Source: Alphaproteobacteria bacterium
Lineage (GTDB): Bacteria; Pseudomonadota; Alphaproteobacteria; SHVV01
Reading direction: 5' to 3'
DNA: 64,000 nt
Assembly: GCA_965261735.1 (NCBI GenBank)
Contig: OZ253470.1
Location: forward strand, 32,001-96,000
In this document: in pieces, positions 11,062-58,654 of the stretch
How positions within the stretch are numbered: position 1 is the stretch's first letter
Layout: every line of letters begins with the position of its first letter
Program-made: the position numbers and the translations under genes
The notes under the pieces: model-generated
Databases searched by the model: none
What the model saw: only the letters and a program-made list of their open reading frames with translations
What the model was told of the DNA's origin: nothing

Positions 11062-11159
11062 CCGTCCATCCGGCGTCGGATCGCTCTGCCGGGCATGATT
11101 ACCGCGACCTCCGCACCATAGCACGAGGTCATGCGGCCGTGCGACCGCGCCGGCGGCAA

Positions 11160-12557
11160 CTAGAGGGGCGGGTGCCGCTCGGCCCACGGGTGGACCGCCT
11201 CGAAGGCGCGGGCCGCGCGGAAGACGAGCGCTTCCCCATAAAGCGGGCCGATGATCTGGAGGCCGACCGGAAGACCCGCGGCGGTGAAGCCGCAGGGTAC
11301 CGTCGCCGCCGGGTGGCGGGTGAGGTTGAAGGGATAGGTGAAGGGCGTCCAGGCCATCCAGTCGATCTCCTCGTCCCCGTTCGGCGTGAGCTGGCCGACG
11401 GCAAAGGGCGGCACCGCGAGGGTCGGCGTGAGCAGGAGATCGTATTGCGTGAGGAACTGGTTCAGGGTCATCCCGAGACTGACCCGCGCTGTGCCCGCCT
11501 CGACCAGGTCCATCACGGCGAATTCGGCACCGAGCCGCGCCGTCTCGACGAGGCCGGGCTCCATCAGCGCCACCTGCTCGGGCGTGAACATTCGCACCAG
11601 CCCGGCGGCGCCGGTGCACCAGTGGGCCCAGAAGATGGGTGTCGGGTCGGCGATGTCGGGGTCGGTGTCCACGACCTCGGCACCCGATCCGGCAAAGGCA
11701 CGGGCGGCGCCGGCGACCAGGTCGGCGACCTCGGGATCGACGTCGGCGTAACCGAGCGTCGCGCTGAAGGCTATCTTGAGCCCGCGGACGCCTGACTCGA
11801 GCACCGCCATCTCGCCAACCCCGTCGTCGGGGAGCGCGTACCAGTCGCGTGCGTCCCAGCCCTTGAGCACCGAGAACATGAGCGCGCCGTCCGCCGCCGT
11901 GCGCGCGATCGGTCCGGTGTTGGCGAGCGAGCTGAACGGGCTGGGCGGGTAGACCGGAACCCGGCCATGGGTGCCCTTGATGCCGAACAGACCGCTGAAG
12001 GAACATGGGATGCGGATGGAGCCGCCACCGTCGGTGCCGAGCGCGAGTGGGCCCATGCCGGCGGCCACCGCCGCCGCCCCGCCCCCACTCGAGCCACCCG
12101 GTGTGAGCTCCGGGTTCCAGGGGTTGCGCGTGATACCGAAGAGGGCGCTGTCGGTGACGCCCTTCCAGCCATACTCCGGCGTATTGGTCTTGCCGAGCAG
12201 GACGGCGCCATGGGCCTTCAGGCGCTCGACGGCCGGTGCGTCCTCGCTCGCCTGCTCGTCCGCGGCGCTCGTCCGCGAGCCGCGCCTCCACGGCCATCCC
12301 GCCACGGGGATAGTGTCCTTGATCGAGATCGGCACGCCGTCGAGCCGGCCCACTGGCTCGGCCCTCATCCAGCGCGCTTCCGAGGCGCGCGCCGCAGCCA
12401 TGGCGGCGTCGCCATCGACGTGGCAGAACGCGTTGAGCTTGGGGTCGTGGGCTTCGATACGCCCCAGCGCCGCGCTTACCGCATCCACGGGCGAGAGGCG
12501 CTTGGCCCGGAAACCCTCGATCAGGTCTACCGCGGAGAGATAGGCCGTGTCGGACAT
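11160..12557 (-). CDS. amidase (amidase-signature family)
   Basis: LDGVPISIKD, GKTNTPEYG, TPGGSSGG, LGTDGGGSIRIP. Start at MSDTAY. Confidence 0.93.
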   Translation of the reverse strand: MSDTAYLSAVDLIEGFRAKRLSPVDAVSAALGRIEAHDPKLNAFCHVDGDAAMAAARASEARWMRAEPVGRLDGVPISIKDTIPVAGWPWRRGSRTSAADEQASEDAPAVERLKAHGAVLLGKTNTPEYGWKGVTDSALFGITRNPWNPELTPGGSSGGGAAAVAAGMGPLALGTDGGGSIRIPCSFSGLFGIKGTHGRVPVYPPSPFSSLANTGPIARTAADGALMFSVLKGWDARDWYALPDDGVGEMAVLESGVRGLKIAFSATLGYADVDPEVADLVAGAARAFAGSGAEVVDTDPDIADPTPIFWAHWCTGAAGLVRMFTPEQVALMEPGLVETARLGAEFAVMDLVEAGTARVSLGMTLNQFLTQYDLLLTPTLAVPPFAVGQLTPNGDEEIDWMAWTPFTYPFNLTRHPAATVPCGFTAAGLPVGLQIIGPLYGEALVFRAARAFEAVHPWAERHPPL

Positions 12558-17627: not shown

Positions 17628-18635
17628 TCAGGCGAGATACGGCCGCAGTTCGGGGGCCGCTTTACCGATAACGGTTGGGTCGGGGTTGCGATCACAGAAG
17701 AACTCGACCCGCATGCCATCGGGATCGACGACGAATAGGCTCCGCTTCGTCGCGTCGTCGATCTGCTTTTCTATGGTGATGCCCGCCTGGCCGAGCGCGC
17801 CGGCGGACTGTTCGACCGCGGCTTCGCTCGCGAGCTGGAAGCCAATATGGTGGACACTGGCCTTGGTGCCGTTGTTCGCCGCGAGCAGCGCGAGGTCGTA
17901 ACCGCCCGCCGTACCCTGCAGGCACGCATAGCTTCCGTCCGCCGCCTTGTGCGCCGTCGCGAGCCCAGCGATATCATTGTAGAACGCGCATGAGCGATCG
18001 ACCTCATCGACGACGATCGCGGTGTGAGTGATCCGCAGCGGGTGAAGCGGCGCCTCGTCGACGCCGTAGAGCCGCGGATCGAGGTCGTAGCGCGGGTCGT
18101 TGGCCGGGATGACGTCGCTCGGATCCCAGTGGCCCGTAATCAGCTCCATCTCACCATGAAACCAGCCATGCCAGTCCTTCATGATGTCGGCGTAGAACTC
18201 CATCAGGTTGCCGTCGGGATCGGGCATGTAGATGCTATGCGAGATCTGATGATCGACGATCATGGCGATGCTTTCGTCGGCGGCCTGCGCCCGTTTGATC
18301 GCGGAGACGAGTTCGGCCTCATTCTCCATCTCCCACCCGAGGTGGAAGAGTCCGACACGGGTTCCTTCGGTCTTAGGTAGCAGCACCTCGCCATCGCGAC
18401 CGATCCGATCCTTGCCGCGCGTGATCTCCACCATCCCGATGTCGTGATGGGTATTGCCGTTGCCGAGAAAGCTCGCCAAGAGCCCAGGCTCGGTCGCTTC
18501 GATCGTGAGCCCGAACACCTTGTTGTAGAACTCGGTGGTCTTCTGGATGTCGCCAACCCATAGGTTTGCATGCCCTAGGCGGCGGGGCCTGAACATGGCC
18601 GGCTGAGCCGTACCAACTTGTTCTGCCGTGGTCAT
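17628..18635 (-). CDS. two-domain VOC family protein (extradiol/catechol 2,3-dioxygenase-like)
   Basis: RRLGHANL, THHDIG, GLFHLGW, SIYMPDPDGNLMEFY; second module ITH...VHHIGF...DPDGMRVEF. Confidence 0.85.
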   Translation of the reverse strand: MTTAEQVGTAQPAMFRPRRLGHANLWVGDIQKTTEFYNKVFGLTIEATEPGLLASFLGNGNTHHDIGMVEITRGKDRIGRDGEVLLPKTEGTRVGLFHLGWEMENEAELVSAIKRAQAADESIAMIVDHQISHSIYMPDPDGNLMEFYADIMKDWHGWFHGEMELITGHWDPSDVIPANDPRYDLDPRLYGVDEAPLHPLRITHTAIVVDEVDRSCAFYNDIAGLATAHKAADGSYACLQGTAGGYDLALLAANNGTKASVHHIGFQLASEAAVEQSAGALGQAGITIEKQIDDATKRSLFVVDPDGMRVEFFCDRNPDPTVIGKAAPELRPYLA

Positions 18636-28049: not shown

Positions 28050-29057
28050 CTAGATGAGATACGGCCTCTGTTTGGGGTCAGCGCCCGCCACCGCACTGAA
28101 ATCGGGCGCTCGAGCCACATAGAACTCGCAGCGCATCGCATCCGGGTCCTTGACGAACAGGCTGCGCTTGACCGGGTTGTCGACGCGCATCTCGATCTCG
28201 ACTCCGGCGTCGGCCAGCGCCTTCTCCGCCGAGTCGAGCTCGCTCTCGTTGGCGACCTCGTAACTGTAGTGGTGGATCGACGGCGCGGCGCCCTCCGCCT
28301 GGCTGAACAGCGCGATACTGAAGGCATAGCCGGCGGCACTGCCGGCGAAGCACTGGAAGGCGCCATCGGGCGCGCTGTAGACGTTGCTCAAGCCGGCGAC
28401 GCCCTCGTAGAAGTCGACCATCGGGCCGAACTTTCCGCACATCAACACGGCATGGGTGAAGCGCAGGGAGTGAACGAGCGCATCGTCCACGCGCCTGATC
28501 TCGGCGCCGGCGTCATAGCGTGACTCAGCGGTGGCGGGCGCCGCATGAGGCTCCCAGCTGCCGGTGACGGGACTGCCTTTCTGGCTATCGAAAAACCCGC
28601 GCCAATCCCTGATCATGTCGGCATAGATCTCGTGCTCGTTGCCGTCGGGATCGAACACATAAACGCTATGTGCGCTCTGGTGGTCGACGCAACGGTAGAT
28701 GGGATAGCCGGCCTCGACCGCCCGGTCGTAGGCCTCGACCAGGCGCTGCTCGTTGTCCATCTCCCACCCGAAATGATTGAGCCCCGCCTTCTTGGCGCGC
28801 CCACTCGAAGGCACGGGCTTGCCATCGCGGCCGACGAGCACCTTGTCACTGACCTGGACCAGGCCGAGATCGTGGTGCGTATTGCCGTTCGAGAGGAACC
28901 CCGCGTTGACGATGTGGATACGGTAGACCTCCTCGAACCCGGCAACCTTGTTGTAGAACTCCATCGAGCGTTCGAGTTCGCCCACGAACAGGTTGGCGTG
29001 ACCGACCCGGCGCGGCGAGAACTTGATGGCCGGCGCCTCTTGCGTCTGAGCTGTCAT
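28050..29057 (-). CDS. two-domain VOC family protein (extradiol dioxygenase-like), paralog of 17628..18635
   Basis: RRVGHANL, NGNTHHDLG, GLNHFGW, SVYVFDPDGNEHEIY; 335 aa like its paralog. Confidence 0.85.
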   Translation of the reverse strand: MTAQTQEAPAIKFSPRRVGHANLFVGELERSMEFYNKVAGFEEVYRIHIVNAGFLSNGNTHHDLGLVQVSDKVLVGRDGKPVPSSGRAKKAGLNHFGWEMDNEQRLVEAYDRAVEAGYPIYRCVDHQSAHSVYVFDPDGNEHEIYADMIRDWRGFFDSQKGSPVTGSWEPHAAPATAESRYDAGAEIRRVDDALVHSLRFTHAVLMCGKFGPMVDFYEGVAGLSNVYSAPDGAFQCFAGSAAGYAFSIALFSQAEGAAPSIHHYSYEVANESELDSAEKALADAGVEIEMRVDNPVKRSLFVKDPDAMRCEFYVARAPDFSAVAGADPKQRPYLI

Positions 29058-29251
29058 GGAACATCCTCCGATGGCGGGTTGTCGGAACCTGCGCCGACCT
29101 TAGCACAGGTCGCCGCGCGTACCTATTCGGAGCGGCGGGTACAGGCGCCACTGCACCGCCGCGGCAGCCAGAATCGGCGCGTGGGCGGAGCGCAGGATGT
29201 GCTAATGTTCGCCGGATCGGCTAGCAGACCGGCGGTGTGATGGAGGGAACC

Positions 29252-30511
29252 ATGGGTTACGAAGGCGGCGTGCAATGGCCGCGCAAAGATTACTCGCGCG
29301 TCCCCTACTCGCTCTACCACGATGCCGACATCTACACCCAGGAGATGGAGTGCATCTTCCGCGGCCCGGTGTGGCTCTTCCTGGGCCTCGAGGCCGAAGT
29401 CCCCAATGCGGGCGACTTCCGCACCACCTGGCTCGGCGAGACCTCCGTCGTCTACAACCGCGACGATGACGGCCAAATCTACGCCTTCGTCAATCGCTGC
29501 GCCCACCGCGGCGCCACCGTGTGCCGCGAGCTTTACGGCAATGCCGCCGATCACACCTGCATCTACCACCGCTGGTGCTACGACCGGCAGGGCAATCTCA
29601 TCGGCATTCCCTTCAAGCGCGGTGTTGGCGGCAAGGGCGGGCTCAGCCCGGACTTCGACCAGAGCGCCCACGGCCTCAGGAAGCTGCGGGTGGAGAGTTA
29701 CTGCGGCGTGCTGTTCGCGACCTTCTCGGACAATCCCGAACCGCTGATCGACTATCTCGGTCCGGCCCATTCCGCTCACCTCGAACGCGTCTTCCACAGC
29801 CCGGTGCGCGTGCTCGGCTACCAGCGCCAGCGCATCCATGGCAACTGGAAGTTCTACAACGAGAACCTGCGCGACCAGTACCACGGGAGCCTGCTGCACG
29901 AGTTCCAGACCACCTTCTCGATCAACCGCATCACCCAGGAGGGCGGCGCCAAGATGGACCCGCGCCACCGCCACAGCATCTCGTGGGCCAAGAAGGGGTC
30001 CGACGATGACGCGGCCGTCCACGAGCTCTACAAGGACAACAAGGTGCGCGAGGGCGAACTCACGCTCAAGGACACGGAGATGCTCGTCTACCATCCGGAG
30101 TACGACGACGGCGTCACCATCTCGATCGCCTCGGTATTCCCCAATGCCTGCTTCCAGCAGATTCACAACAGCGTGGCGACGCGGCAGATTCGGCCCAAGG
30201 GGCTCGACGCCTTCGAGCTCGTCTTCACCATCGTCGGCTTCGAGAGCGATAGCGCGGAGATGACGCGGGCGAGGCTGTTGCAGTCGAACATGGTGGGCCC
30301 CGCCGGGCTGATCTCGATGGAGGATGGCGAGGCGGTGGAGATCGCCCACCGCTCGAGCCGGGCGACACAAGACGCCCACACGGTCGTCGAGATGGGCGGA
30401 GGCGGCAAGATCGAGGACTTCGACTTCCTCGCCGCCGATATCCCGATCCGCGGTTTCTGGTCCTACTACTCCGAGCTCATGGGGTTCGAGCCGGAGGGGG
30501 CAGTGCGATGA
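29252..30511 (+). CDS. Rieske aromatic ring-hydroxylating oxygenase alpha subunit 1 (salicylate hydroxylase/anthranilate dioxygenase-like)
   Basis: SRVPY, CAH-x17-CIYH Rieske motif, NWKFYNENLRDQYHGSLLH, VGPAGLISMEDGE. GGAGGG RBS before ATG 29252. Confidence 0.93.
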   Translation: MGYEGGVQWPRKDYSRVPYSLYHDADIYTQEMECIFRGPVWLFLGLEAEVPNAGDFRTTWLGETSVVYNRDDDGQIYAFVNRCAHRGATVCRELYGNAADHTCIYHRWCYDRQGNLIGIPFKRGVGGKGGLSPDFDQSAHGLRKLRVESYCGVLFATFSDNPEPLIDYLGPAHSAHLERVFHSPVRVLGYQRQRIHGNWKFYNENLRDQYHGSLLHEFQTTFSINRITQEGGAKMDPRHRHSISWAKKGSDDDAAVHELYKDNKVREGELTLKDTEMLVYHPEYDDGVTISIASVFPNACFQQIHNSVATRQIRPKGLDAFELVFTIVGFESDSAEMTRARLLQSNMVGPAGLISMEDGEAVEIAHRSSRATQDAHTVVEMGGGGKIEDFDFLAADIPIRGFWSYYSELMGFEPEGAVR

Positions 30512-30981
30512 CGACGGCAGAGGTGCGAGACGCCATCAACGGCCTGCTCGCCGACTACGTTCATTACATCGATGCCGACAGGCTCGAGGAGTGGCTCGAC
30601 TTCTTCACCGAGGATTGCGTCTACAAAGTCCTGCCCCGAGAGAACGTCAAGCAGGGCCTGCCGGGCAGTCTCATGGAGTGCCACAACAAGAACATGCTGC
30701 GCGACCGCATCGTCTCCTACCGCGAGGCCAACGAGTACAACATTCACGTCGACCGCCATCTCCTGAGCAACGTGCGCATCGTTGGCGAGAATGCCGGCGT
30801 CTACGACGTCGAGGCGAACTACGCCGTATTCCAGACCAACAACGACGGCGAGAGCCGCCTGTTCAGCGTCGGCAACTACGAGGACAAGGTCGTGTTCGAC
30901 AATGGGTCTGCGCGCTTCAAGGAAAAGATCGTGGTCGTCGACACCTATTCGATCCCGACCCTGCTCGCCACGCCCCTGTGA
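30508..30981 (+). CDS. Rieske oxygenase beta (small) subunit
   Basis: YVHYID..RLEEWLDFFTEDC.Y...PREN, MLRDRI, G.Y.D, IPTLLATPL (NagH/AndAd-like C-terminus); ATGA overlap with alpha 1. Confidence 0.92.
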   Translation: MTTAEVRDAINGLLADYVHYIDADRLEEWLDFFTEDCVYKVLPRENVKQGLPGSLMECHNKNMLRDRIVSYREANEYNIHVDRHLLSNVRIVGENAGVYDVEANYAVFQTNNDGESRLFSVGNYEDKVVFDNGSARFKEKIVVVDTYSIPTLLATPL

Positions 30982-31007
30982 GCGCCGCCGCGCCGCCGCG
31001 GTAGTCC

Positions 31008-32273
31008 TTGCGCGACACGCTCGCCGTGACCGGTAGCCACCAGATACCCTGGCCGCGGAAGGATTTTTCCAGAGTACCGTTTGCGCTCTATCACGACGTA
31101 GACATCTACGCGCAGGAGATGGAGCGCATCTTCCGCGGTCCCGTGTGGCTCTTCCTCGGCCTCGATGCCGAGGTCCCCAATGCTGGCGACTTCCGCACCA
31201 CCTGGCTCGGCGAGACGCCCGTCGTCTACAACCGCGACGATGACGGCCAAATCTACGCCTTCGTCAATCGCTGCGCCCACCGCGGCGCCACCGTGTGCCG
31301 CGAGCTTTACGGCAATGCCGCCGATCACACCTGCATCTACCACCGCTGGTGCTACGACCGGCAGGGCAATCTCATCGGCATTCCCTTCAAGCGCGGGGTT
31401 GGCGGCAAGGGCGGGCTCAGCCCGGACTTCGACCAGGGCGCCCACGGCCTCAGGAAGATTCGGGTGGAGAGTTTCTGCGGCGTGCTGTTCGCGACCTTCG
31501 CCCACGACGTCGAGCCGTTGATCGACTATCTCGGCCCAACCCACGCCGATTTCCTGGCGCGCACCTTTCACAGCCCCACGCGCTTGCTCGGCTATCAGCG
31601 CCAGCGTATCCACGGCAACTGGAAGCTCTACAACGAGAACATCCGCGATCAGTACCACGGCAGCCTCCTCCATCGCTTCCAGGCGGCGTTCGGCATCACC
31701 CGTTTCACGCATGCCGGCGGCACCGTGACCGACGCGTGCCACCGCCACAATCTGCTCTACACGATCGCCGGCAGCGACACGGACGCAGAGGCCCACGAGG
31801 TCTACGCGGATGCCGACCAGGAGCCGCTCGACATCGAACTCGCGGCGGCGGAGTTCATGGACTACGTACCGGAGTTCGAGGATGGGCTAGCGCTCGGGCT
31901 GGCGGCGTTCTTTCCCAACGCCCTCTTCCAGCAAATGCGCAACAGCTTGGCCGTGCGCCAGATCCGCCCCAAGGGTCCCGGCGCCTTCGAGCTCATCTTC
32001 ACCCTCTTCGGCTACGAGAGCGACAGCCCGGAAATGACGCGCCACCGCCTCGGTCAGTCCAATCTCGTCGGACCGGCCGGGCTGATCTCGATGGAGGACG
32101 GCGAGGCCGTGGAAATCGCCCACCGAGCGACCATGACGGAGCAGGACGCCGCGGCAGTCATCGAAATGGGCGGTCGCGGCCCCATTCGCCGGCACGCCCC
32201 GTACAAGATCAACGAATCGGCGATCCGCGGCTTCTGGTCGCACTACGCAACGTTGATGGGGCACGAACTCTAG
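31008..32273 (+). CDS. Rieske oxygenase alpha subunit 2
   Basis: Same Rieske motif; NENIRDQYHGSLLH; most divergent catalytic domain. Start uncertain (TTG 31008 or GTG 31026). Confidence 0.9.
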   Translation: MRDTLAVTGSHQIPWPRKDFSRVPFALYHDVDIYAQEMERIFRGPVWLFLGLDAEVPNAGDFRTTWLGETPVVYNRDDDGQIYAFVNRCAHRGATVCRELYGNAADHTCIYHRWCYDRQGNLIGIPFKRGVGGKGGLSPDFDQGAHGLRKIRVESFCGVLFATFAHDVEPLIDYLGPTHADFLARTFHSPTRLLGYQRQRIHGNWKLYNENIRDQYHGSLLHRFQAAFGITRFTHAGGTVTDACHRHNLLYTIAGSDTDAEAHEVYADADQEPLDIELAAAEFMDYVPEFEDGLALGLAAFFPNALFQQMRNSLAVRQIRPKGPGAFELIFTLFGYESDSPEMTRHRLGQSNLVGPAGLISMEDGEAVEIAHRATMTEQDAAAVIEMGGRGPIRRHAPYKINESAIRGFWSHYATLMGHEL

Positions 32274-32359
32274 CCTGCCCGGGCGCCGATTGCGCCCGCC
32301 CGCCAAAGCCCATAACGTGGTTCACCGCTCGAGTGGCTGAAGCAATCCCGAGGATCGAT

Positions 32360-33622
32360 ATGGACGGCGCCCTGACTGTGGAGTGGCCGCGAGACGACTA
32401 CTCGCGCGTCCCCTACTCGCTCTACCACGACGCCGATATCTACGCGCGGGAGATGGAGCGCATTTTTCGGGGCCCGGTGTGGCTCTTCCTGGGCCTCGAG
32501 GCCGAGGTCCCGAACCCGGGCGACTTCCGCACCACCTGGCTTGGCGAGACGGCGGTCGTCTACAACCGCGACGATGACGGCCAAATCTACGCCTTCGTCA
32601 ACCGCTGCGCCCACCGCGGCGCCACCGTGTGCCGCGAGCTTTATGGGAATACCTCCGACCACACCTGCATCTACCACCGCTGGTGCTATAACCGGCAGGG
32701 CAACTTCATCGGCATTCCCTTCAAGCGCGGGGTCGGCGGCAAGGGTGGGCTGGCCGAGGACTTCGACCAAGGCGCCCACGGCCTCGAGAAGCTCCGCGTC
32801 GAGGGCTATTGCGGCGTGCTGTTCGCGACCTTCTCGGACGACCCCGAGCCGCTGATCGACTATCTCGGTCCGACGCACGCCGACTACCTGGCTCGCGTCT
32901 TTCACAGCCCGGTGCGCGTGCTCGGCTACCAGCGGCAATACGTCTACAGCAACTGGAAGTTCTATAACGAGAACCTGCGGGACCAGTACCACGGCAGCCT
33001 GCTGCACGAGTTTCTCACCACCTTCGCCATCTCGCGCGTGACCCAGGAAGGCGGCGCCAGGATGGACCCGCGTCACCGCCACAGCATCTCCTACAGCAAG
33101 CAGGGCACGGATCAGGACTCCGACGCGCGCGAGGTCTACAAGGAAGCCAAAGTGCGCGAGGGGCTGTTGCAGCTTCGTGAGCCGGCGATGGTCGACTACC
33201 ACCCGGAATATGACGACGGCATCAGCATCTCGATCTGCTCAGTGTTTCCCAACGCCTGTTTTCAGCAGATCAACAACAGCCTCGCGACGCGCCAAATCCG
33301 ACCCAAGGGGAGGGACGCGTTCGAGCTCGCCTTCACGATTTTCGGCTACGAGGACGACAGCGAGGCGATGACCCGACATCGCCTTCTGCAGTCGAACCTG
33401 GTAGGACCGGCCGGGCTCATCTCGATGGAGGACGGCGAGGCCTGCGAGCTCGCGCACCGCTCGAGCGCCAGCGACAAGGACGCCCACACGGTGATCGAGA
33501 TGGGCGGGCGCGGCGCCATTCCCGACAACGTCACCTACAAGGTCAGCGATATCCCGATCCGCGGTTTCTGGTCCTACTACGCCGAGCTCATGGGGCTCGA
33601 GCGCGACGGCGCCGTGCGCTAG
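32360..33622 (+). CDS. Rieske oxygenase alpha subunit 3
   Basis: C-terminal 420 aa of ORF 31295..33622 from MDGALTVEWPRDDYSRVP (GAGGA RBS); motifs intact. Confidence 0.92.
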   Translation: MDGALTVEWPRDDYSRVPYSLYHDADIYAREMERIFRGPVWLFLGLEAEVPNPGDFRTTWLGETAVVYNRDDDGQIYAFVNRCAHRGATVCRELYGNTSDHTCIYHRWCYNRQGNFIGIPFKRGVGGKGGLAEDFDQGAHGLEKLRVEGYCGVLFATFSDDPEPLIDYLGPTHADYLARVFHSPVRVLGYQRQYVYSNWKFYNENLRDQYHGSLLHEFLTTFAISRVTQEGGARMDPRHRHSISYSKQGTDQDSDAREVYKEAKVREGLLQLREPAMVDYHPEYDDGISISICSVFPNACFQQINNSLATRQIRPKGRDAFELAFTIFGYEDDSEAMTRHRLLQSNLVGPAGLISMEDGEACELAHRSSASDKDAHTVIEMGGRGAIPDNVTYKVSDIPIRGFWSYYAELMGLERDGAVR

Positions 33623-34716
33623 TGGATTGATTCCAACGTTTGGAACCCTCTGTTTCGTGCGGCGATGATATGATCGGGGTCGGCTTTCCAGATGAAGGGT
33701 TTTGGGTTTGCGTCATTGTATTCGCGGACAAATCGGTTGATGGCGTCCTGAAGGTCGACGACGGATTGGAAGACGCCGTATTTGAGCCTGCGCCGCGTTA
33801 GTTTGGCGAAGAAGCCCTCGACGGCATTGAGCCACGAGCACGAGGTTGGCGTGAAGTGGAAGGTCCAGCGTGGATGGCGGGCGAGCCAGGCGCGGACCTT
33901 GTCCTTCTTGTGCGCGGCGTAGTTGTCGAGGATGACGTGGACGGCCTTGTCCGTCGGCACCTCGCGCTCGATGCGGTTGAGGAAGCGGATGAACTCCTGA
34001 TGGCGGTGGCGCTGCATGTTCTGTGCGATGACCGTACCGTCCAGCACGTTGAGCGCGGCGAACAGCGTCGTCGTGCCATGCCGTTTGTAATCATAGGTCA
34101 TCGTACCGGCGCGGCCCTTCTTCATCGGCAAGCCGGGTTGGGTGCGGTCGAGCGCCTGGATCTGTGATTTCTCATCAACCGACAGCACCACGGCATGGGC
34201 CGGCGGATCGACATACAAGCCGACGATATCTGTGAGCTTCTCGGCGAAGGCGGGATCATTGGAGAGCTTGAAGTGCCGCCAGCGGTGCGGGCTGAGGCCA
34301 TGGGCCTTCCAGATCGCTTGGACCGTCGACGCCGCGACGCCAGCAACCTTCGCCATCGCGCGCAGCGTCCAGTGGGTCGCCTCGTGCGGCGGCGCTTGCT
34401 GGGTCAGGCGGACGATCTCGGCGACGCGCTCCGGCGGGATCGGCGCTTTGCCAGGCGGACGGGACCTGTCGCGAAGCAAGCCGTTGACACCCTCGTGCAT
34501 GAACCGCTCCTGCCAGCGCCAGACACAGGTCTTGGACTTGCCGGTCTCGGCCATGATCGACGAGTTCCCGAGCCCCTCGTCGCTCTTCAGGATGATCCGC
34601 GCCCGCCAGACATGTTTCTGCGAGCTCTTCGGGTCCGCGACGATAGCTTGCAATCGCTGACGGTCGCCAGACGTGACAGTAAAATAGATGCCGGTGCGCA
34701 TAGCACAGACTCGCAT
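33619..34716 (-). CDS. IS630-family transposase
   Basis: HTH region (RWQERF..EG..GLLRD), VDEKSQIQAL, YKRHGTTTLFAAL, ILDNYAAHK, FTPTSCSWLNAVE. Alternative start at 34701. Confidence 0.95.
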   Translation of the reverse strand: MRVCAMRTGIYFTVTSGDRQRLQAIVADPKSSQKHVWRARIILKSDEGLGNSSIMAETGKSKTCVWRWQERFMHEGVNGLLRDRSRPPGKAPIPPERVAEIVRLTQQAPPHEATHWTLRAMAKVAGVAASTVQAIWKAHGLSPHRWRHFKLSNDPAFAEKLTDIVGLYVDPPAHAVVLSVDEKSQIQALDRTQPGLPMKKGRAGTMTYDYKRHGTTTLFAALNVLDGTVIAQNMQRHRHQEFIRFLNRIEREVPTDKAVHVILDNYAAHKKDKVRAWLARHPRWTFHFTPTSCSWLNAVEGFFAKLTRRRLKYGVFQSVVDLQDAINRFVREYNDANPKPFIWKADPDHIIAARNRGFQTLESIH

Positions 34717-34773
34717 GACACCGCACCATACGGAATCTCAAATCGGACTCTTTCGTTCCGATCAATCCACTAG
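33619..34773 (-). mobile_element. IS630-family insertion sequence
   Basis: Perfect 13-bp inverted ends ctagtggattgat (33619-33631) / atcaatccactag (34761-34773). CTAG (containing the TA target) occurs at both ends. Confidence 0.93.
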
Positions 34774-34786
34774 CAAAGCGAGGCAA

Positions 34787-36052
34787 ATGATGGATGCGGC
34801 GGCTCCCATTCACTGGCCTCGCAACGACTATTCGCGAGTGCCCTACCGGCTCTATCACGACGCGGATATCTACGCGCAGGAGATGGTGCGCATCTTCCGC
34901 GGTCCCGTGTGGCTCTTCCTCGGCCTCGAGGCCGAGGTCCCCAATGCGGGCGACTTCCGCACCACCTGGCTCGGCGAGACGCCCGTCGTCTACGACCGCG
35001 ACGACGACGGCCAGGTCTACGCCTTCGTCAATCGCTGCGCCCATCGCGGCGCCACCGTGTGCCGCGAGCTCTACGGGAATAGCGCCGATCACACCTGCAT
35101 CTACCACCGCTGGTGCTACGACCGGCGGGGCAACCTCATCGGCATTCCCTTCAAGCGCGGGGTTGGCGGCAAGGGCGGGCTCAGCCCCGATTTCGACCAG
35201 GGCGCCCACGGCCTCGAGAAGCTCCGCGTCGAGAGCTATTGCGGCGTGCTGTTCGCGACCTTCGCCAACGACGTCGAGCCGTTGATCGACTATCCCGGGC
35301 CAACCCATGCCGCCCATCTCGCGCGGGTCTTCCACAGCCCGGTGCGCGTGCTCGGCTACCAGCGGCAGCGCATCCACGGCAACTGGAAGTTCTACAACGA
35401 CAACCTGCGCGACCTCTATCACGGCACTCTACTGCACGAGTTCCAGACCACCTTCGCGATCGCCCGCGTGACGCAGGAGGGCGGTGCCGGCATGGACCCG
35501 CGCCACCGCCACAACCTGTCCTGGGCCAAGGAGGGCACCGACGACGACGCGGATGCGCACGAGCAATACCAGCAGGCGAACGTCCGCGAGGGCGTGCTGA
35601 CGCTCGAGGCGCCCGATTTCGTGACCTTTCGCCCCGAGTACGCCGATGGCATCAGCATCTCGATCTGCTCGGTGTTCCCCAACGCCTGTTTCCAGCAAAT
35701 ACGCAACAGCCTGGCGACGCGTCAGATACGGCCCAAGGGGACGGACTCTTTCGAGCTCGTCTTCACGATCTTCGGGTACGCGAGCGACACGCCGGAGATG
35801 ACGCGCCACCGCCTACTGCAGGCTAATCTGGTGGGGCCGGCGGGCCTCATCTCGATGGAGGACGGCGAAGCCGTGGAAATCGCTCACCGCTCGACCCTGA
35901 CCGACCAGGGCGCCTGCAACGTGATCGAAATGGGCGGCCGCGGGAAGATCGGCGATTCGGTCGAGTTCGGTGTTACCGACGTTCCCATGCGCGGCTTCTG
36001 GTCCTACTACGCGGAATTGATGGGCTGCGAGCCGCCCGGCGCGATACGCTAG
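34787..36052 (+). CDS. Rieske oxygenase alpha subunit 4
   Basis: From MMDAAAPIHWPRNDYSRVP (GAGG RBS); Rieske motif intact; NDNLRDLYHGTLLH. Confidence 0.92.
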   Translation: MMDAAAPIHWPRNDYSRVPYRLYHDADIYAQEMVRIFRGPVWLFLGLEAEVPNAGDFRTTWLGETPVVYDRDDDGQVYAFVNRCAHRGATVCRELYGNSADHTCIYHRWCYDRRGNLIGIPFKRGVGGKGGLSPDFDQGAHGLEKLRVESYCGVLFATFANDVEPLIDYPGPTHAAHLARVFHSPVRVLGYQRQRIHGNWKFYNDNLRDLYHGTLLHEFQTTFAIARVTQEGGAGMDPRHRHNLSWAKEGTDDDADAHEQYQQANVREGVLTLEAPDFVTFRPEYADGISISICSVFPNACFQQIRNSLATRQIRPKGTDSFELVFTIFGYASDTPEMTRHRLLQANLVGPAGLISMEDGEAVEIAHRSTLTDQGACNVIEMGGRGKIGDSVEFGVTDVPMRGFWSYYAELMGCEPPGAIR

Positions 36053-36101
36053 CGCCGAGGCGTTCAACCGACGAAACCAGAACGACAAGGTGGAGGTGCC
36101 G

Positions 36102-37298
36102 ATGGCCGCGCCGCGCAAGGAATATCGACTGGACGACTTGAACCCGCCGATCAGCCACTACACCGACGCGGTGCAGTGCGGCGATTTCCTGTTCATGTCG
36201 GGGGCCGGTCCGTTCGATTCCGAAATGAACCTCATCGGCGAGGGCGATGTCGTCAAGCAATGCGAGGTGACGTGCCAGAACATCGAGAAGATGTTGAACG
36301 CGGCCGGCATGACCTTCAAGGACATCGTCTACTTCAAGGTGCTGCTCGAAGACGTGAGCGATGGCGCGGCGATCAATCCGGTGCGCCAGGCGTTCTCCGG
36401 TGATTCGCGACCGGTGAGCACGCGGGTCGGCGTCGGCCACCTGGCCTGGCCGGGCATGCTCATCGAGATCGAGGCCTACGCCTACAAGCCGCAAAACGGC
36501 GGCCCACCGAAGCAGGAGATCCGGGTCGAGAGCTTGTGCGAGCCGCTGAGCCACTACACCGACGTGGTCAAGTGCGGCGACTTCGCGTTCCTTTCCGGAA
36601 CAGGGCCGATCGGGCCCGATGCGAAGGCGTTGCATTTCGGCGACCCGGTGGCGCAGGGCCGGGCGACGATGGAGAACATGCATAAGATGCTCGAGGCCGC
36701 CGGCATGGGCTTCGAGGACGTGGCCAAGGTCATCTGCTACATGGAGAACATCTACGACCGCCCCAAGATCAACGTCGCGCGCAAGGACTTCTTCGGCGAT
36801 AGCCGCCCGACCAGCACGCTGTTCGGCATCCGCCGCCTCGCCATCCCGGGCATGGGCCACGAGATCGAAGCGATCGCCTACAAGGCCAGCGGCAGCGCGC
36901 CGAAGCGGCGCGAGATTCGGGTCGAGGGTTACCGCGAGCCGATCAGCCACTACACCGACGGCGTCAAGTGCGGCGACCTCTACTTCGTCTCCGGCAGCGG
37001 CCCGTTCGATGACAACCTCAAGCTCGTCGGCGGCGACGACATGACGGCACAAGCCGTGCAGACCCACGACAACATCGAGCGTATCCTGGCGGCCGGCGGC
37101 ATGAGCTACGAGGACGTGGCCAAGGTCACCGTGTACATGGACAACACCGAGGAGCGAAAAGTGCTGGACGAGGTGCGCAAGAGGTACTTCGGCAACACGC
37201 GGCCGGCCAGCACCCTGTTCGGGGCCAACCGCCTGGCGCTGTTCGGCATGAAGCTCGAGATCGAGACCATCGCCTACAAGCCCGACTCGGGGGACTAG
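36102..37298 (+). CDS. triple-domain RidA/YjgF/UK114-superfamily protein
   Basis: Three ~130-aa repeats P[IL]SHYTD.V.CGD..F.SG.GP...AAGM.F.D...F.GD.RP.ST...E[IL]E..AYK. GGAGG RBS. Confidence 0.88.
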   Translation: MAAPRKEYRLDDLNPPISHYTDAVQCGDFLFMSGAGPFDSEMNLIGEGDVVKQCEVTCQNIEKMLNAAGMTFKDIVYFKVLLEDVSDGAAINPVRQAFSGDSRPVSTRVGVGHLAWPGMLIEIEAYAYKPQNGGPPKQEIRVESLCEPLSHYTDVVKCGDFAFLSGTGPIGPDAKALHFGDPVAQGRATMENMHKMLEAAGMGFEDVAKVICYMENIYDRPKINVARKDFFGDSRPTSTLFGIRRLAIPGMGHEIEAIAYKASGSAPKRREIRVEGYREPISHYTDGVKCGDLYFVSGSGPFDDNLKLVGGDDMTAQAVQTHDNIERILAAGGMSYEDVAKVTVYMDNTEERKVLDEVRKRYFGNTRPASTLFGANRLALFGMKLEIETIAYKPDSGD

Positions 37299-39964: not shown

Positions 39965-41245
39965 GTGAGTAAGGTCGAGCCGCTGGCGCCGGTGCGCATC
40001 GCCGGCCAGGACGTGCATTTCGCACAAGGCGTCAAGGCCGGCGGCTGGGTGTTCCTCACCGGCCATGAGGCGACGGACTTCGCTACCGGCCTCGCACCCG
40101 AGGTCGCCGGCAAGCCTCACTTCCCGCTTTACGGGCAGCCCAAACACAGGCGCGAGGGCGACTTCATCCTGCGCCGCTTCACCGACCTGCTCGGGGCCGC
40201 GGGCACCGACCTCGAGCACTCGGTTCGGCTCGACCAGTACTACCCGACTTGGAAGGCCGTCGATCCCTACCACCACGCGCGCCGGGCCCATTTCGGCGAG
40301 AACATTCCGCCAAGCACCTCGATCCTAATGGAGGAGCTGATGGTCACCGGCGCCGATATCAGCGCCTCGATCATCGCCGTCGTGCCGAGTGCCGGGCGCG
40401 AGGTGAAGCGCGTCCGGCCCGACACGGTGCGGGCGCCGACATGGTCGGGCTTCGCGCCGGTGATGACTTCAGGCGACTACGTCTTCGTCGCCGGTCAGAT
40501 GGCCAATGCCGAAGATTGGTCGGTCGATGCGCGCGCGCATGTGGCCGACGGCGCGTTGTGGGCCGGCTTCGAGATTCGCCTGCAGGCCGAGTTCATCATC
40601 AACGAGCGCATCAAGCCGGCGCTGGAAGCCGCCGGCTCCTCGCTCGAGGGCGTCGTCAAGGCTCAGGCCTACCTCAGCAACGTCGAGGACTTTCCCCACT
40701 TCATCGAGGTCTGGAATGCTCATTTCGGTGAACGGGGCTGCGCGCTCAGCGTCGTCCCGGCGTCGGGCTTCGCGATGGTCGAGGGGATCATCGAGATCAA
40801 CGTGATGGCGCTCGCCGATGGCGGCACGACGCGCAAGGAGATCGTCGATTGTGCCATGCCCGCGACGATGGCCTACGGCGCGCCGGCCGTTCGCGCCGGG
40901 GATCTGCTGCTGCTCTCGGCGCTGATGGCCGTGGATGAGGACGGCGCCGCCCCCGCGGCTGAGGCGCGCGCGGGCCTGCCCCATTTCGCCATCTCCCCGC
41001 GCGCCCAGATGCGCCTCATCCTGGAGCAGGCGGAGCGGATTTGCCGGGCCGGCGGAACCGCGCTCGAGAACGTGGTCCGCGTCCACCAGTTCCACGCCGA
41101 CCTCGCCGAGTTCTACCCCATGCACGCGGTATGGCGCGAGCTGCTACCCGATCAGCCGATCCCCTTCTCGGCCGTCCGCGTGCCCGCGCCCCTGCCCGCG
41201 CCCGGCGCCACCGTCATGCTCGATCTATGGGTGTACGCGCCGTAG
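39965..41245 (+). CDS. multi-domain (three-module) Rid-superfamily protein
   Basis: Modules FAQGVKAGGWVFLTGH, FAPVMTSGDYVFVAGQMA...LEAAGSSLEGVVKAQAYL, and APAVRAGDLLLLSAL...GTALENVVR. GTG start. Confidence 0.75.
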   Translation: MSKVEPLAPVRIAGQDVHFAQGVKAGGWVFLTGHEATDFATGLAPEVAGKPHFPLYGQPKHRREGDFILRRFTDLLGAAGTDLEHSVRLDQYYPTWKAVDPYHHARRAHFGENIPPSTSILMEELMVTGADISASIIAVVPSAGREVKRVRPDTVRAPTWSGFAPVMTSGDYVFVAGQMANAEDWSVDARAHVADGALWAGFEIRLQAEFIINERIKPALEAAGSSLEGVVKAQAYLSNVEDFPHFIEVWNAHFGERGCALSVVPASGFAMVEGIIEINVMALADGGTTRKEIVDCAMPATMAYGAPAVRAGDLLLLSALMAVDEDGAAPAAEARAGLPHFAISPRAQMRLILEQAERICRAGGTALENVVRVHQFHADLAEFYPMHAVWRELLPDQPIPFSAVRVPAPLPAPGATVMLDLWVYAP

Positions 41246-49422: not shown

Positions 49423-49632
49423 TCAGTCCGAATTGGCTTCGACGACGATGGCGCCGGTCGGGCACAGGGCTTCCGACTCGCGCGCGAGAGCCACGTGCTC
49501 CGGCGCCGGCGATCCGATCAACACCCGCGTCGGCCCGTCGTCGTCGGCGCGACCGAACAGGGTGGGCGCGAGCTGGATGCAGTACTCGGTCTTGTGACAC
49601 CTCATCGGATCGATCCGGATTCTCAGGCTCAT
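49423..49632 (-). CDS. P450-associated ferredoxin, probably [3Fe-4S]
   Basis: C-x2-T-x2-C...AP..F...CPTGAI; overlaps the P450 stop. Confidence 0.82.
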   Translation of the reverse strand: MSLRIRIDPMRCHKTEYCIQLAPTLFGRADDDGPTRVLIGSPAPEHVALARESEALCPTGAIVVEANSD

Positions 49633-50855
49633 GGAGAGTCGAGGCGGATCGGAAAGACCGCATAGTTGCCCTGCGGATTGTCGGGCTTGCGCTGCGCCGG
49701 GAGATCGGGATCGGGCCGCATCCCGGCTTGGTACAGCTCGTGGAGGATGCGGACCATCAGCCCCGGCGCCGCCGCGCCAGCCTCACCGACGGCGAAGCCC
49801 TGGCCGATACACGTGTGGGCCCCGCCACCGAAAGTCAGGCCATAGGGTTGGGCGCCCACCGCGCGTCGACGCGGGATTCGGAAGCTGTCAGCCTCGGCGC
49901 CGAAGACTTGCCCATCCCTGTTGGCGGCCGCGAAATCGAGCAAGATGTGCTCCCCGGCGCGCATGGCCCGGCCCGTCGACAACACGGTGTCACGTTGCGT
50001 GACCCGGTGCTTCGGCGGCCCCGGTGGATGGAGGCGCAGGCCCTCGCACACGGCGTCGCGCAGGAAGCCCATGTCGCGGAGTTTGGCGATATCCGCCGGG
50101 CGCCGCTCGATCCAGGCGGCGAGTTCAACAACGATGTGCGGTAGAGCGTTGGTCGGCGAAAAGAGCCCGCCGGTGAGGTACATCATCGCTTCGCGAACCG
50201 CGAGGTCATCGTCCCACTCTTCGAAATAGTGCCGATCGCGGATGATGAGCGTGAGCAGGTCGTCCGGGTGCGCGCCCGGATCGCCGTCCTCGGCCGCCAC
50301 GAGGGCCAACCGCCGCGACCAGGACGGCTTGAAATAGCACTCGACGAAGCGGCGCTTGGCCGCGAGCGCTTCGCGCATCACCCGGGTGCCCTCGCGCGGC
50401 GACCAGTGCACGTGGCTGCCCTCGGTGATCAACTCGGCGTCGCCATAGAACTCGGTGGCGGCCGCGAGCCGGTCGAGACCGTCAATCCCGGCGATCGCGG
50501 CCGAAACCGCAAGGTACATCGGCCTCACGAGAGCTTGCAGGTCCGCACGGACCACCCCATCGGCGCCAGGCGATGCTCGGCAGGCCTCGAGCCCGCGGCG
50601 GATGGCCGGGAGCAGCACCCGGCCGTCGTAATCGGCGAGAGCCTCCTTACGGAACAGGACCGCCTCGAGGCGTCGGCGCTCGAAGTGCTCACGGCCTTCG
50701 AGCGCCGTCAGGGTATGCGCCCGGAAGGGTGCGTTCGTGCCCTGCCCCCACCCGGGGGCAAAGTCCTTCGACTTAAAGATCTCCTCGACTTCGACGAAGG
50801 ACGTGACCAGGGTCATGTCCGCGAATGCGGGGTCGGCCATGCCCTGGGCGCTCAT
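49629..50855 (-). CDS. cytochrome P450
   Basis: K-helix EGLRLHPP, AANRD..VFG, heme ligand FGGGAHTCIG. Confidence 0.9.
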   Translation of the reverse strand: MSAQGMADPAFADMTLVTSFVEVEEIFKSKDFAPGWGQGTNAPFRAHTLTALEGREHFERRRLEAVLFRKEALADYDGRVLLPAIRRGLEACRASPGADGVVRADLQALVRPMYLAVSAAIAGIDGLDRLAAATEFYGDAELITEGSHVHWSPREGTRVMREALAAKRRFVECYFKPSWSRRLALVAAEDGDPGAHPDDLLTLIIRDRHYFEEWDDDLAVREAMMYLTGGLFSPTNALPHIVVELAAWIERRPADIAKLRDMGFLRDAVCEGLRLHPPGPPKHRVTQRDTVLSTGRAMRAGEHILLDFAAANRDGQVFGAEADSFRIPRRRAVGAQPYGLTFGGGAHTCIGQGFAVGEAGAAAPGLMVRILHELYQAGMRPDPDLPAQRKPDNPQGNYAVFPIRLDSP

Positions 50856-55924: not shown

Positions 55925-58654
55925 CTACGCGTCGTCGATTTCCTCGTCGCCCCCGGTTTCGGCCTCGTCGACCGCCTCCCCCTCGCCGTCCTCGGCGGAG
56001 ACCTCCGGAAGCCACGCCACGGAAACGACACGCTCATCGGCTTCGGTCCGAAACAAAGTTACACCTTGGGTATTGCGCCCGGCAAAGCGGATGTCGTCGA
56101 CCGGCGTGCGGATCAACTGGCCGTGGTCCGTGACGAGCATGACCTGGTCCCCATCGGCGGCGGGAAAGGACGAGACGACCGGGCCGTTGCGCTCCGAGGT
56201 TACGATATTGATGATGCCCTGGCCGCCGCGCGTGGTGACGCGGTACTCGTAGGCGGAGGTTCGCTTGCCGTAGCCGTTCTCAGTGACGCTGAGGACGAAC
56301 TCTTCGGCCGCCGCCAACTCCGCCGCGCGTTCGCTACCGATACCGCTCGCCTGGGAAGGCGCCGCGGCTTCTTCGTCGCTTCGGCCTTCCCGGCGTCGCG
56401 AGCGTAGGTAGGCGTCGCGCTGCTCGGTGTCGGCCTCGACGTGGTGCAGGATCGACATGGAGATTACCGCGTCGTCGCGCACGAGCCTCATCCCGCGGAC
56501 ACCGATGGTGGCGCGCCCACCGTGCATCCGCAGCTCGGCGACTGCGAAGCGGATGCATTTTCCCTTCCGCGATACGAGCAACACGTCGTCGGTATCAGTG
56601 GCAGTGGCAACGCCGATCAGCCGGTCGCCTTCCTCCAGCTTGATGGCAATGATTCCAGTCGACAGCACGTTGCTGAACTTGCTGAGCAGGATAGGCCGGA
56701 CGATTCCGCGGGTGGTCGCAAATACCGCGACGAGCTCGGCCCACGCCCCCTCGTCCTCCGGCAGCGGCATCAGCGTCGCGATGGTCTCGCCCTCGGCAAG
56801 CGGCAACACGTTGACCATCGCCTTGCCCCGCGCCTGAGGCGTACCCAGAGGCAGGGCATACGCCTTGAGCTTGTAGACCTTGCCGGTCGTCGAGAAGAAA
56901 AGTACCGGGGTGTGGGTATTGACGACGAAAACACGGGTAACGAAGTCCTCCTCCCGGGTGCTCATGCCGGCCCGCCCCTTGCCGCCGCGCCGCTGCGCGC
57001 GGTAGGTGCTGAGCGGAACCCGTTTGATGTAGCCGGTGTGGGTGACGGTAACGACCATCTCCTCGCGCTTGATGAGCTCTTCCTCGTCTTGCTCGAACTC
57101 GCCCTCCAGGATGGTGGTGCGGCGCGGCGTGCCGAACTTCTTCTTGATGGCCACCAGCTCATCGCGCAGCACCCGATATAGGCGGGTCCGACTGCGCAGA
57201 ATGTCGAGATAGTCGACGATGCGCTCGACCAGCGTTTGGAGCTCGCTGCCGATGCGATCGCGTTCGAGCGCGGTGAGGCGCTGAAGGCGAAGATCCAGGA
57301 TCGCCCGCGCCTGGGCCTCCGAGAGACGGTAGTCACCGTCGACGACCCCCTGTCCGGGCGTATCGATGAGCTCGATGAGCGACGTTACCTCGCCCGCCGG
57401 CCAGGCCTCGGCCATCAGGCGCTCGCGCGCTTTGGCCGGGTCGGGCGCCTTGCGGATGAGCGCGACGACGGCGTCGATGTTGGCGACGGCCACCGCGAGA
57501 CCGATCAGCACTTCCGCTCGCTCCCGCGCCTTGGCGAGTTCGAACTTCGTGCGCCGGGTGATGACCTCCTCGCGAAAGGTGACGAACGCGGCGATGACAT
57601 CGCGCAGGCCCAAGAGCTCCGGCCGGCCGCCGGTAAGCGCCAGCATGTTGACGCCAAAGCTCGTTTGCAGCGGGGTAAACCGATAGAGCTGATTGAGAAC
57701 GAGGTCGGCGTTGACCTCGCGCCGGAGCTCGATAACGACCCTCACGCCATCGCGGTCGGACTCGTCGCGCAGCTCCGCTATACCCTCGACTCGTTTGCTG
57801 CGCGCGACCTCGGCAATCTGCTCGATCAGGCGCGACTTGTTCACCTGATAGGGGATTTCCGTGACGACGATGACGGGACGGTCGCGGCCTGCCTCCTCCA
57901 TGCGCACGCGGCTGCGCATGACGATGGAGCCGCGCCCGAGGTGATAGGCGGCGCGCGCACCCGCCGAGCCGAGGATGAAGCCGCCGGTCGGAAAGTCCGG
58001 CGCCGGCACGTGCGTCATCAGCTCCTCGACCTCTATCTCCGGATTGTCGACAAAGGCGCAACAGGCGTCGATCACCTCACCGAGATTGTGGGGCGGAATG
58101 TTCGTCGCCATGCCCACCGCAATGCCACCTGCGCCGTTGACCAGCAGGTTGGGAAAGCGCGCCGGCAGCACCGTTGGCTCGAGCGTCGTGTCGTCGTAGT
58201 TGGCGCGGAAGTCGACCGTGTCCTTGTCGATGTCGTCGAGCAGGGCGCGCGCGACCTCGGCCAGGCGGACCTCGGTGTAGCGCATCGCCGCAGGCGGATC
58301 GCCGTCCATCGAGCCGAAATTGCCCTGGCCGTCGATCAGTTGGAGCCGCATGGCGAAGTCCTGCGCCATGCGGACCATGGCGTCGTAGATCGCCTGGTCG
58401 CCGTGCGGGTGATACTTGCCCATGACGTCGCCAACGATGCGCGCCGCCTTACGGTAAGCGCGGTTCCAGTCGTTACCGGTCTCGTCCATCCCGTAAAGGA
58501 TGCGCCGGTGCACCGGCTTGAGCCCATCGCGCACGTCGGGCAAGGCGCGCGCGACGATGACGCTCATGGCGTAATCGAGGTAGGAGCGCCGCATCTCCTC
58601 CTCGATGCTGATCGGCGAGATGTCTTGGTCGGGCGGTACGAGGGTGTCGGTCAA
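55925..58654 (-). CDS. gyrA: DNA gyrase subunit A
   Basis: [22 protein letters not shown], GyrA-box QRRGGKG. Confidence 0.98.

Follow-up and report, generated by a model that had tools for sequence, protein, structure and literature searches.

Rieske oxygenases open up aromatic pollutants and plastic monomers to degradation and are targets of enzyme engineering, and their small (beta) subunit is usually regarded as the private partner of one large (alpha) subunit. The accessible text on Phenylobacterium immobile E describes a pyrazon oxygenase system with 19 alphas (PpoC1-19) and a single beta (PpoD). Fifteen of these alphas share 63.7-89% identity, with most of their differences in one segment close to the catalytic iron; on native gels the oxygenases have a size of about 200 kDa, and an alpha shows no activity when beta is missing (PMC7907043). 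In the available part of the report on Sphingobium sp. PNB, seven alphas (AhdA1[a-f]A2[a-f] and XylXY) each have their own adjacent beta, and the many oxygenases of one catabolic region have a common ferredoxin and reductase, with insertion elements among the genes (PMC4048848). Here we analysed a 64,000-nucleotide stretch of an Alphaproteobacteria bacterium (GenBank assembly GCA_965261735.1, contig OZ253470.1, positions 32,001 to 96,000 of the forward strand; hereafter the window), in which four Rieske oxygenase alpha genes, alpha1 to alpha4, stand together with a single beta gene.

For the terephthalate oxygenase alpha TphA2, the parts of the structural report available give the roles of residues D207, H210, H215, and D356. 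In the same source, the substrate carboxylate is held by R309, an arginine kept throughout the subfamily (R323 in NagG), and N224, S243, and R390 are specific to terephthalate (PMC9060491).

A single beta gene beside four alpha genes

Open reading frame (ORF) calls and Pfam searches bore out the gene order of the original prediction, which was alpha1-beta-alpha2-alpha3-(IS630)-alpha4 at 29252-36052 of the window. The four alphas had been described as full length at about 420 aa, and they were found as intact ORFs of 419-421 aa. The proposed Rieske motif CxH-x17-CxxH is invariant in alpha1-4 as C88-x-H90-x17-C108-x2-H111. The ligands of the proposed iron motif are also present, but its earlier spelling has to be corrected to D-x-Y-H-x4-H. 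All four alphas also have the bridging D213 and the iron ligands H216, H221, and D363; these residues align to TphA2 D207, H210, H215, and D356, respectively. The tails GAVR, GAVR, and GAIR were correctly assigned to alpha1, alpha3, and alpha4. Alpha2 ends in ...MGHEL instead of a tail of the GAVR/GAIR type; it stops early at a TAG, and a tail-like remnant with small indels, resembling the ...EPPGAIR end of alpha4, follows the stop (32259-32300). A search with a profile built from 40 betas found a single beta in the 64-kb window.

Our favoured reading, to which we give a probability of roughly 0.6, is that this locus encodes four isoenzymes, each an alpha3beta3 particle on the same beta, served by one electron chain encoded elsewhere and with their specificity set by a diverged segment of the pocket. 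The alpha gene of a three-component aryl-carboxylate Rieske oxygenase operon would have risen to four copies, with no increase in the gene for the structural beta. Each alpha would form the usual alpha3beta3 particle with the common beta, and the same reductase and ferredoxin, encoded outside the window, would feed all four particles. These would have the carboxylate-anchoring Arg and the metal sites in common and would differ at the far end of the substrate pocket. The isoenzymes would act on different substituted aromatic acids, possibly amino-substituted ones, because genes of the RidA deaminase family are attached to the operon.

All four alphas matched Pfam Rieske (E = 1e-15 to 3e-15) and scored above the cut-off for Ring_hydroxyl_A. 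Their closest solved structures were TphA2 (7q04; E = 2.7e-116) and NagG (7c8z; E = 1.6e-98), and at the former value chance likeness is no concern. The distant structural matches included carnitine and carbazole oxygenases. Among the NCBIfam models the top-ranked one was AndAc, with 453.4-474.3 bits against an equivalog cut-off of 750, while beta scored 171.7 bits against the AndAd cut-off of 230 (NF041684 and NF041685 being the models for AndAc/AndAd). A filing as the anthranilate dioxygenase AndAcAd was ruled out, as the alpha and beta scores both lie far below the equivalog cut-offs. Judged by sequence, the genes are unnamed members of the TphA2/NagG/AndAc aryl-carboxylate subfamily.

All four alphas, and each of the 45 sequences of our alignment A3, carry an Arg at the equivalent of TphA2 R309 (R316 by the numbering of alpha1). 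Other pocket positions vary. In alpha1, alpha2, alpha3, and alpha4, the equivalent of TphA2 N224 is N, T, S, and A, that of S243 is S, L, S, and S, that of I290 is I, L, I, and I, and that of R390 is L, K, K, and G, respectively. The invariant R316 together with these varying positions points to aromatic carboxylates as the probable substrates, with a distal specificity that differs per alpha. Terephthalate itself was considered and is an unlikely substrate, since none of the four alphas retains the full set of residues for its second carboxylate (N224/S243/R390).

Beta scored 44.5 bits with Pfam PF00866 (Ring_hydroxyl_B; cut-off 27). Its solved relatives were 3eby (E = 2.5e-39), NagH (7c8z_B), and TphA3 (7q04_A), with E = 4.8e-23 for TphA3 and 1.1e-23 for NagH. 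Structure modelling had been proposed along with the original prediction, and it placed beta on alpha2 with an ipSAE (interaction prediction score from aligned errors) of 0.93, whereas three controls gave 0.00 at best; the modelling covered alpha2 with beta at 1:1, and similar complexes are already solved. Of 157 solved complexes 116 reach the ipSAE mark, as do 2 of 215 mismatched pairs; these counts hold only roughly because our own alignments were used in the complex model. Three runs of the model agreed in at least 97% of the contacts, with a partner pLDDT (predicted local distance difference test) of at least 93. Since like complexes have been solved (7q04, 7c8z), the alpha2-beta pass may reflect memory or likeness and is not proof of binding. 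Of the 41 residues predicted to contact beta, 26 do not vary among the four alphas; residues 194-199 and most of those at 355-369 are among them. We infer that beta most likely binds all four alphas, and likewise that they are active enzymes on the substrates proposed above.

Beta-free Rieske oxygenases are found in other lineages, for example the carnitine and carbazole oxygenases, and alpha2-4 might similarly work as alpha trimers (alpha3), with beta needed by alpha1 only. We regard this as very improbable. The solved members of the subfamily, TphA2A3 and NagGH, are alpha3beta3, and the strands predicted to contact beta are invariant in the four alphas of the window. Moreover, as far as the available account of P. 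immobile goes, its alpha alone is inactive (PMC7907043).

Divergence of the alphas and recurrence of the layout

The other alphas are 70-79% identical to alpha1. Alpha2 is the most distinct, with 69-71% identity to the other three in alignment A3 (70% to alpha1). The Rieske halves of the paralogs are closer to each other (82-86% identical). A 178-nt stretch at 29445-29622 is the longest exact match between alpha1 and alpha2, and the synonymous divergence (dS) of this pair is 0.033 over codons 61-150, compared with 0.76 in the C-terminal half. Other alpha pairs have shorter tracts in which synonymous identity is high. The 178-nt identity and the low dS in codons 61-150 mark recent gene conversion in the Rieske half, which has partly homogenised the alphas there.

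The most variable segment of the alphas comprises columns 241-300, which hold the equivalents of TphA2 S243 and I290. Pairwise dN/dS (omega) is 0.22-0.46 over the whole alpha genes. In columns 301-390 omega is 0.14-0.25 in every pair (0.19-0.25 in the alpha2 pairs), and in columns 241-300 it is 0.30-0.47 among alpha1, alpha3, and alpha4 and 0.80-1.09 in the alpha2 pairs. Purifying selection thus acts on the alphas, including their catalytic core. The mosaic of Rieske-half conversion and pocket-segment divergence would show how sets of alphas stay compatible.

Scanning a single genome of each species with the beta alignment gave 79 related loci, all from metagenome-assembled genomes (MAGs) and none from the window's own genome, with a best match of 68%; the alphas and betas of each locus were counted by alpha and beta profiles on six-frame ORFs. 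A search of genomes for arrays of many alphas with one beta had been called for in the original prediction, and it found this uncommon layout in four of the 79 loci, which are the nearest relatives of the window. Two of them, L003 and L011, have three alphas and one beta, L023 has four alphas and one beta, and L014 has at least two alphas and one beta on a contig that ends 393 nt before the first alpha. At most one alpha of the family stands beside beta in 74 remaining loci, where some contigs are short. A more distant locus, L058 (3391-11802), has the order alpha-beta, a weak alpha-like gene, then alpha-beta-alpha; with three family alphas and two betas it is intermediate between the paired and the shared layout.

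In a tree of 87 alphas, the arrays of L003, L011, L014, and L023 form a clade of 18 rows with L001, L018, and the window, with a support of 94 in the Shimodaira-Hasegawa-like approximate likelihood ratio test (SH-aLRT). The alphas of the four arrays sort into three well-supported orthologous groups, with an extra copy in L023. Because these groups are kept across genomes, the arrays are old and have been maintained in that lineage. The alphas of the window form one clade in the full-length tree (SH-aLRT 99), and the tree of the N-terminal half agrees (100), while in the tree of the C-terminal half alpha2 leaves the window clade on a long branch. For the C-terminal half, the approximately unbiased (AU) test did not reject a tree in which the four alphas are held together (p = 0.825), nor did it reject alpha3 with group A (p = 0.39), alpha1 with group C (p = 0.29), or alpha4 with group B (p = 0.41). 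The data are therefore compatible both with duplications that took place independently and with old paralogs whose relationships gene conversion has blurred.

In L011 the gene order is a short-chain dehydrogenase/reductase (SDR), alpha, two genes on the opposite strand (one RidA and one double RidA), alpha, alpha, beta, RidA, an IS481-type transposase, a hydrolase, a reductase, and a Rieske ferredoxin. The layout of L003 is much like it where scanned, and in both loci ferredoxin reductase and RidA genes are near the alphas. A reductase was found within 5 kb of beta in L001, L003, L011, and L023, and a Rieske ferredoxin in L011. Relatives thus encode the complete three-component system, and RidA genes accompany it as they do in the window. 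In both L003 and L011, one alpha group lies in a transcription unit separate from beta and the other two alphas.

Such closely related alphas could also assemble with one another. Mixed particles would arise if the alphas co-assembled as heterotrimers on one beta3 base, with the Rieske centre of one paralog feeding the iron of another, which would give combinatorial oxygenases. Recent paralogs of homomeric proteins can usually still assemble with one another. The four genes belong to a single operon and share 70-79% identity, with Rieske halves that are 82-86% identical and partly homogenised by gene conversion, and the residues of the inter-subunit electron path (the Rieske ligands, D213, and H216) are invariant. 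But the separate transcription unit of one of the three alpha groups in L003 and L011 argues against it, our literature searches, which were of limited coverage, found no alpha3beta3 oxygenase with mixed alphas, and mixed particles need not catalyse anything other than what a mixture of pure ones would, as every active site is contained in a single alpha. We consider mixed particles possible, though unlikely. In a more specific form, mixed trimers of the alphas would be put together on one beta3 while a single mRNA is being translated or immediately afterwards, gene conversion would keep the Rieske domains and interfaces interchangeable, and the pocket would diversify. We hold this form to be doubtful; if true, the locus would be a built-in generator of oxygenase variety, with the array conserved in a clade of uncultured Alphaproteobacteria.

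Several observations weigh against the favoured reading of four isoenzymes on one beta. The start of beta overlaps the stop of alpha1 (ATGA), with GGAGGGGG ahead of beta, and beta is thus translationally coupled to alpha1 only. No clear ribosome-binding site precedes the TTG start of alpha2, whose tail is truncated and whose pocket segment is near neutral (omega 0.8-1.09). The IS630 element separates alpha4 and the RidA gene from the other operon genes by 1.15 kb of antisense DNA, and it may sever alpha4 from the operon promoter. The count of a single beta covers the 64-kb window, and further betas may be present elsewhere in the genome; MAGs of the array clade contain further alpha-beta pairs on other contigs (L011/L055, L014/L065, and L001/L058). 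Invariant residues are weakly enriched at the predicted beta interface (24 of 39, compared with 86 of 193 in the rest of the catalytic domain; Fisher p = 0.056), and the invariant beta-contact residues are also conserved family-wide. In the window no match to a reductase, Rieske ferredoxin, or SDR was found, either by tblastn with the L011 proteins (E <= 1e-3) or as Pfam domains among the ORFs scanned; without redox partners or a cis-diol dehydrogenase homolog there, the activity depends on genes outside it. Finally, a single beta gene would have to supply the products of four alpha genes, a fourfold imbalance in stoichiometry that nothing here accounts for. The original claim that one beta serves four alphas stands as the likeliest reading, given the single beta in 64 kb, the recurrent layout, the largely invariant predicted contact surface, the complex model, and the P. 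immobile precedent, but the four-alpha stoichiometry is the part that it leaves unexplained.

Some of these points would be expected if only alpha1 truly pairs with beta and alpha2-4 are surplus tandem duplicates that are poorly expressed, decaying, or using a beta encoded elsewhere. The translational coupling limited to alpha1, the position of alpha4 behind the insertion element, and the further alpha-beta pairs of related MAGs agree with it, as does alpha2 with its TTG start, missing ribosome-binding site, lost tail, longest branch, and omega near 1 in the pocket segment. The single clade of the window alphas (SH-aLRT 99) is also what lineage-specific duplicates would give. But the four ORFs are intact with every catalytic residue kept, the omega of the catalytic core is 0.14-0.25 in all pairs, and a good ribosome-binding site precedes alpha3 as well as alpha4. 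The four paralogs are all present in close strains, with identities of 99.5, 98.1, 99.5, and 99.5% for alpha1 to alpha4, and the conserved orthologous groups in four other genomes indicate sets maintained over long times. We therefore judge it improbable that alpha1 is the only partner of beta, and we prefer four isoenzymes on the common beta.

The window and the four related loci suggest that the catalytic subunit alone has been repeatedly multiplied and diversified, with beta and the electron chain kept single. If this is true, it offers a design rule for engineering, in which alphas are swapped on a fixed scaffold. The locus would also be a compact four-gene natural experiment on the pocket residues that set substrate choice in the TphA2/NagG/AndAc subfamily.

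Operon features, the insertion element, and the neighbourhood

The features of the locus are listed in Table 1. The ATG of alpha1 at 29252 is preceded by the ribosome-binding site GGAGG, and the 419-aa form is also that of a database protein with 99.5% identity. The triple-RidA gene directly downstream of alpha4 probably belongs to the same operon.

Table 1. Features at and around the alpha-beta operon; positions are those of the window.
Feature	Position	Strand	Description
Two-domain extradiol-type (VOC/glyoxalase fold) dioxygenase	28050-29057	-	Pfam Glyoxalase, two stretches; divergent from alpha1
alpha1	29252-30511	+	419 aa from ATG at 29252; upstream in-frame GTG at 29237; Pfam Rieske and Ring_hydroxyl_A
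Gene-conversion tract	29445-29622 (alpha1)	+	178 nt identical to 31219-31396 in alpha2
beta	30508-30981	+	157 aa; Pfam Ring_hydroxyl_B and SnoaL_4; sole small subunit in the window
alpha2	31008-32273	+	421 aa; TTG start; Pfam Rieske and Ring_hydroxyl_A; most divergent large subunit
alpha3	32360-33622	+	420 aa; Pfam Rieske and Ring_hydroxyl_A; GAGGA six bases before ATG
IS630-family element	about 33622-34771	-	NCBIfam IS630 transposase; Pfam DDE_3; terminal inverted repeats; TA...TA flanks
alpha4	34787-36052	+	421 aa; Pfam Rieske and Ring_hydroxyl_A; GCGAGG ahead of ATGATG
Triple RidA (Rid/YjgF) fusion	36090-37298	+	402 aa; Pfam Ribonuc_L-PSP, three stretches, E = 1.1e-70; TIGR00004, 188 bits

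The transposase ORF of the insertion sequence (IS) between alpha3 and alpha4 (33619-34716, minus strand) encodes 365 aa and matched NCBIfam NF033545 with 267.8 bits (cut-off 100), as well as Pfam DDE_3. Imperfect 21-nt terminal inverted repeats, 86% complementary, were identified at 33618-33638 and 34754-34774. Both ends of the element are flanked by TA, a TA target-site duplication, and the TAG stop of alpha3 consists of the duplicated TA and the first base of the element. When the element was excised in silico, the alpha3 TAG was followed by a spacer of about 15 nt with GCGAGG and then by the alpha4 ATG. As this junction leaves intact genes and a spacer, the element entered an intergenic spacer and broke no gene. 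One promoter-like site was found within the operon, a weak one at 34657-34685 in the element and facing alpha4, compared with 1.3 expected, and eight terminator-like sites were found, compared with 4.7 expected; neither number is above chance.

In L011 beta and RidA are closely followed by an IS481-family transposase (11063-12016). The presence of mobile elements seems to be a recurrent feature of such oxygenase clusters.

RidA proteins are homotrimers, and the 402-aa triple RidA of the window may correspond to a complete trimer in a single polypeptide. One-domain and two-domain RidA genes lie side by side in L011 (5700-6089 and 6304-7161) and in L003 (5960-6352 and 6349-7179). A second multi-RidA protein of the window, 426 aa with at least two RidA-like stretches, is encoded at 39965-41245 (plus strand), a few kb from the operon.

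Near the operon, there are genes for Amidohydro_2 proteins, a branched-chain-type ATP-binding cassette (ABC) transporter, a CoA-transferase, an acyl-CoA dehydrogenase, a hydratase, and an ADP-forming CoA ligase. Two 335-aa two-domain dioxygenases of the vicinal oxygen chelate (VOC)/extradiol type, at 28050-29057 and 17628-18635 (both minus strand), are 42% identical to each other; both scored far below the cut-offs of the named ring-cleavage families, the one at 28050-29057 with weak matches to HpaD and catechol 2,3-dioxygenase. A P450 gene at 49629-50855 has no ferredoxin beside it.

The window is chromosomal, with clpP, tig, gyrA, ssb, uvrA, tgt, and queA present. The nearest non-self relatives of its GyrA (55925-58654, minus strand) are at most 72% identical, and the named ones are MAGs of uncultured Alphaproteobacteria, Rhodospirillaceae, and Dongiaceae. 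The host seems to be without close named relatives.

Comparison with described systems

TphA2A3 (7q04-7q06) and NagGH (7c8z) have the same metal ligands and the same carboxylate-anchoring Arg as the alphas of the window, and their architecture is alpha3beta3. Unlike the locus studied here, in each of them one alpha pairs with one beta. AndAcAd is the best-scoring named family for both the alphas and beta, and its name is used in the automatic annotation of relatives. Literature searches, which were of limited coverage, returned no account of a many-alpha/one-beta operon or of alpha3beta3 particles with mixed alphas.

The sphingomonad clusters include, in the part of the report available, salicylate- and anthranilate-hydroxylating members of the same broad subfamily as the window alphas. 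They differ in their alpha to beta ratio, with seven pairs there and 4:1 in the window.

As described in the accessible text on P. immobile, its paralogous alphas outnumber a single beta and their divergence is concentrated in one segment, which lies near the catalytic iron, and in both respects the window is similar, the segment here being columns 241-300, which hold pocket residues. In contrast, the alpha genes of P. immobile are reported there as scattered, none of them beside beta or the redox partners, whereas those of the window form a tandem operon. PpoD is a protein of 21.5 kDa and the beta of the window one of 157 aa. The substrate class also differs, being pyrazon and phenazone in P. 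immobile and probably aryl carboxylates here. The likeness between the two, so far as that text allows the comparison, is one of layout, and no homology is claimed beyond the superfamily. Since the 19 alphas and one beta of P. immobile are published, the sharing of a beta has itself already been described. What sets the window apart from the published systems is its tandem operon form, its place in the aryl-carboxylate subfamily, the recurrence of such arrays, in conserved form, among uncultured Alphaproteobacteria, and its mosaic of gene conversion.

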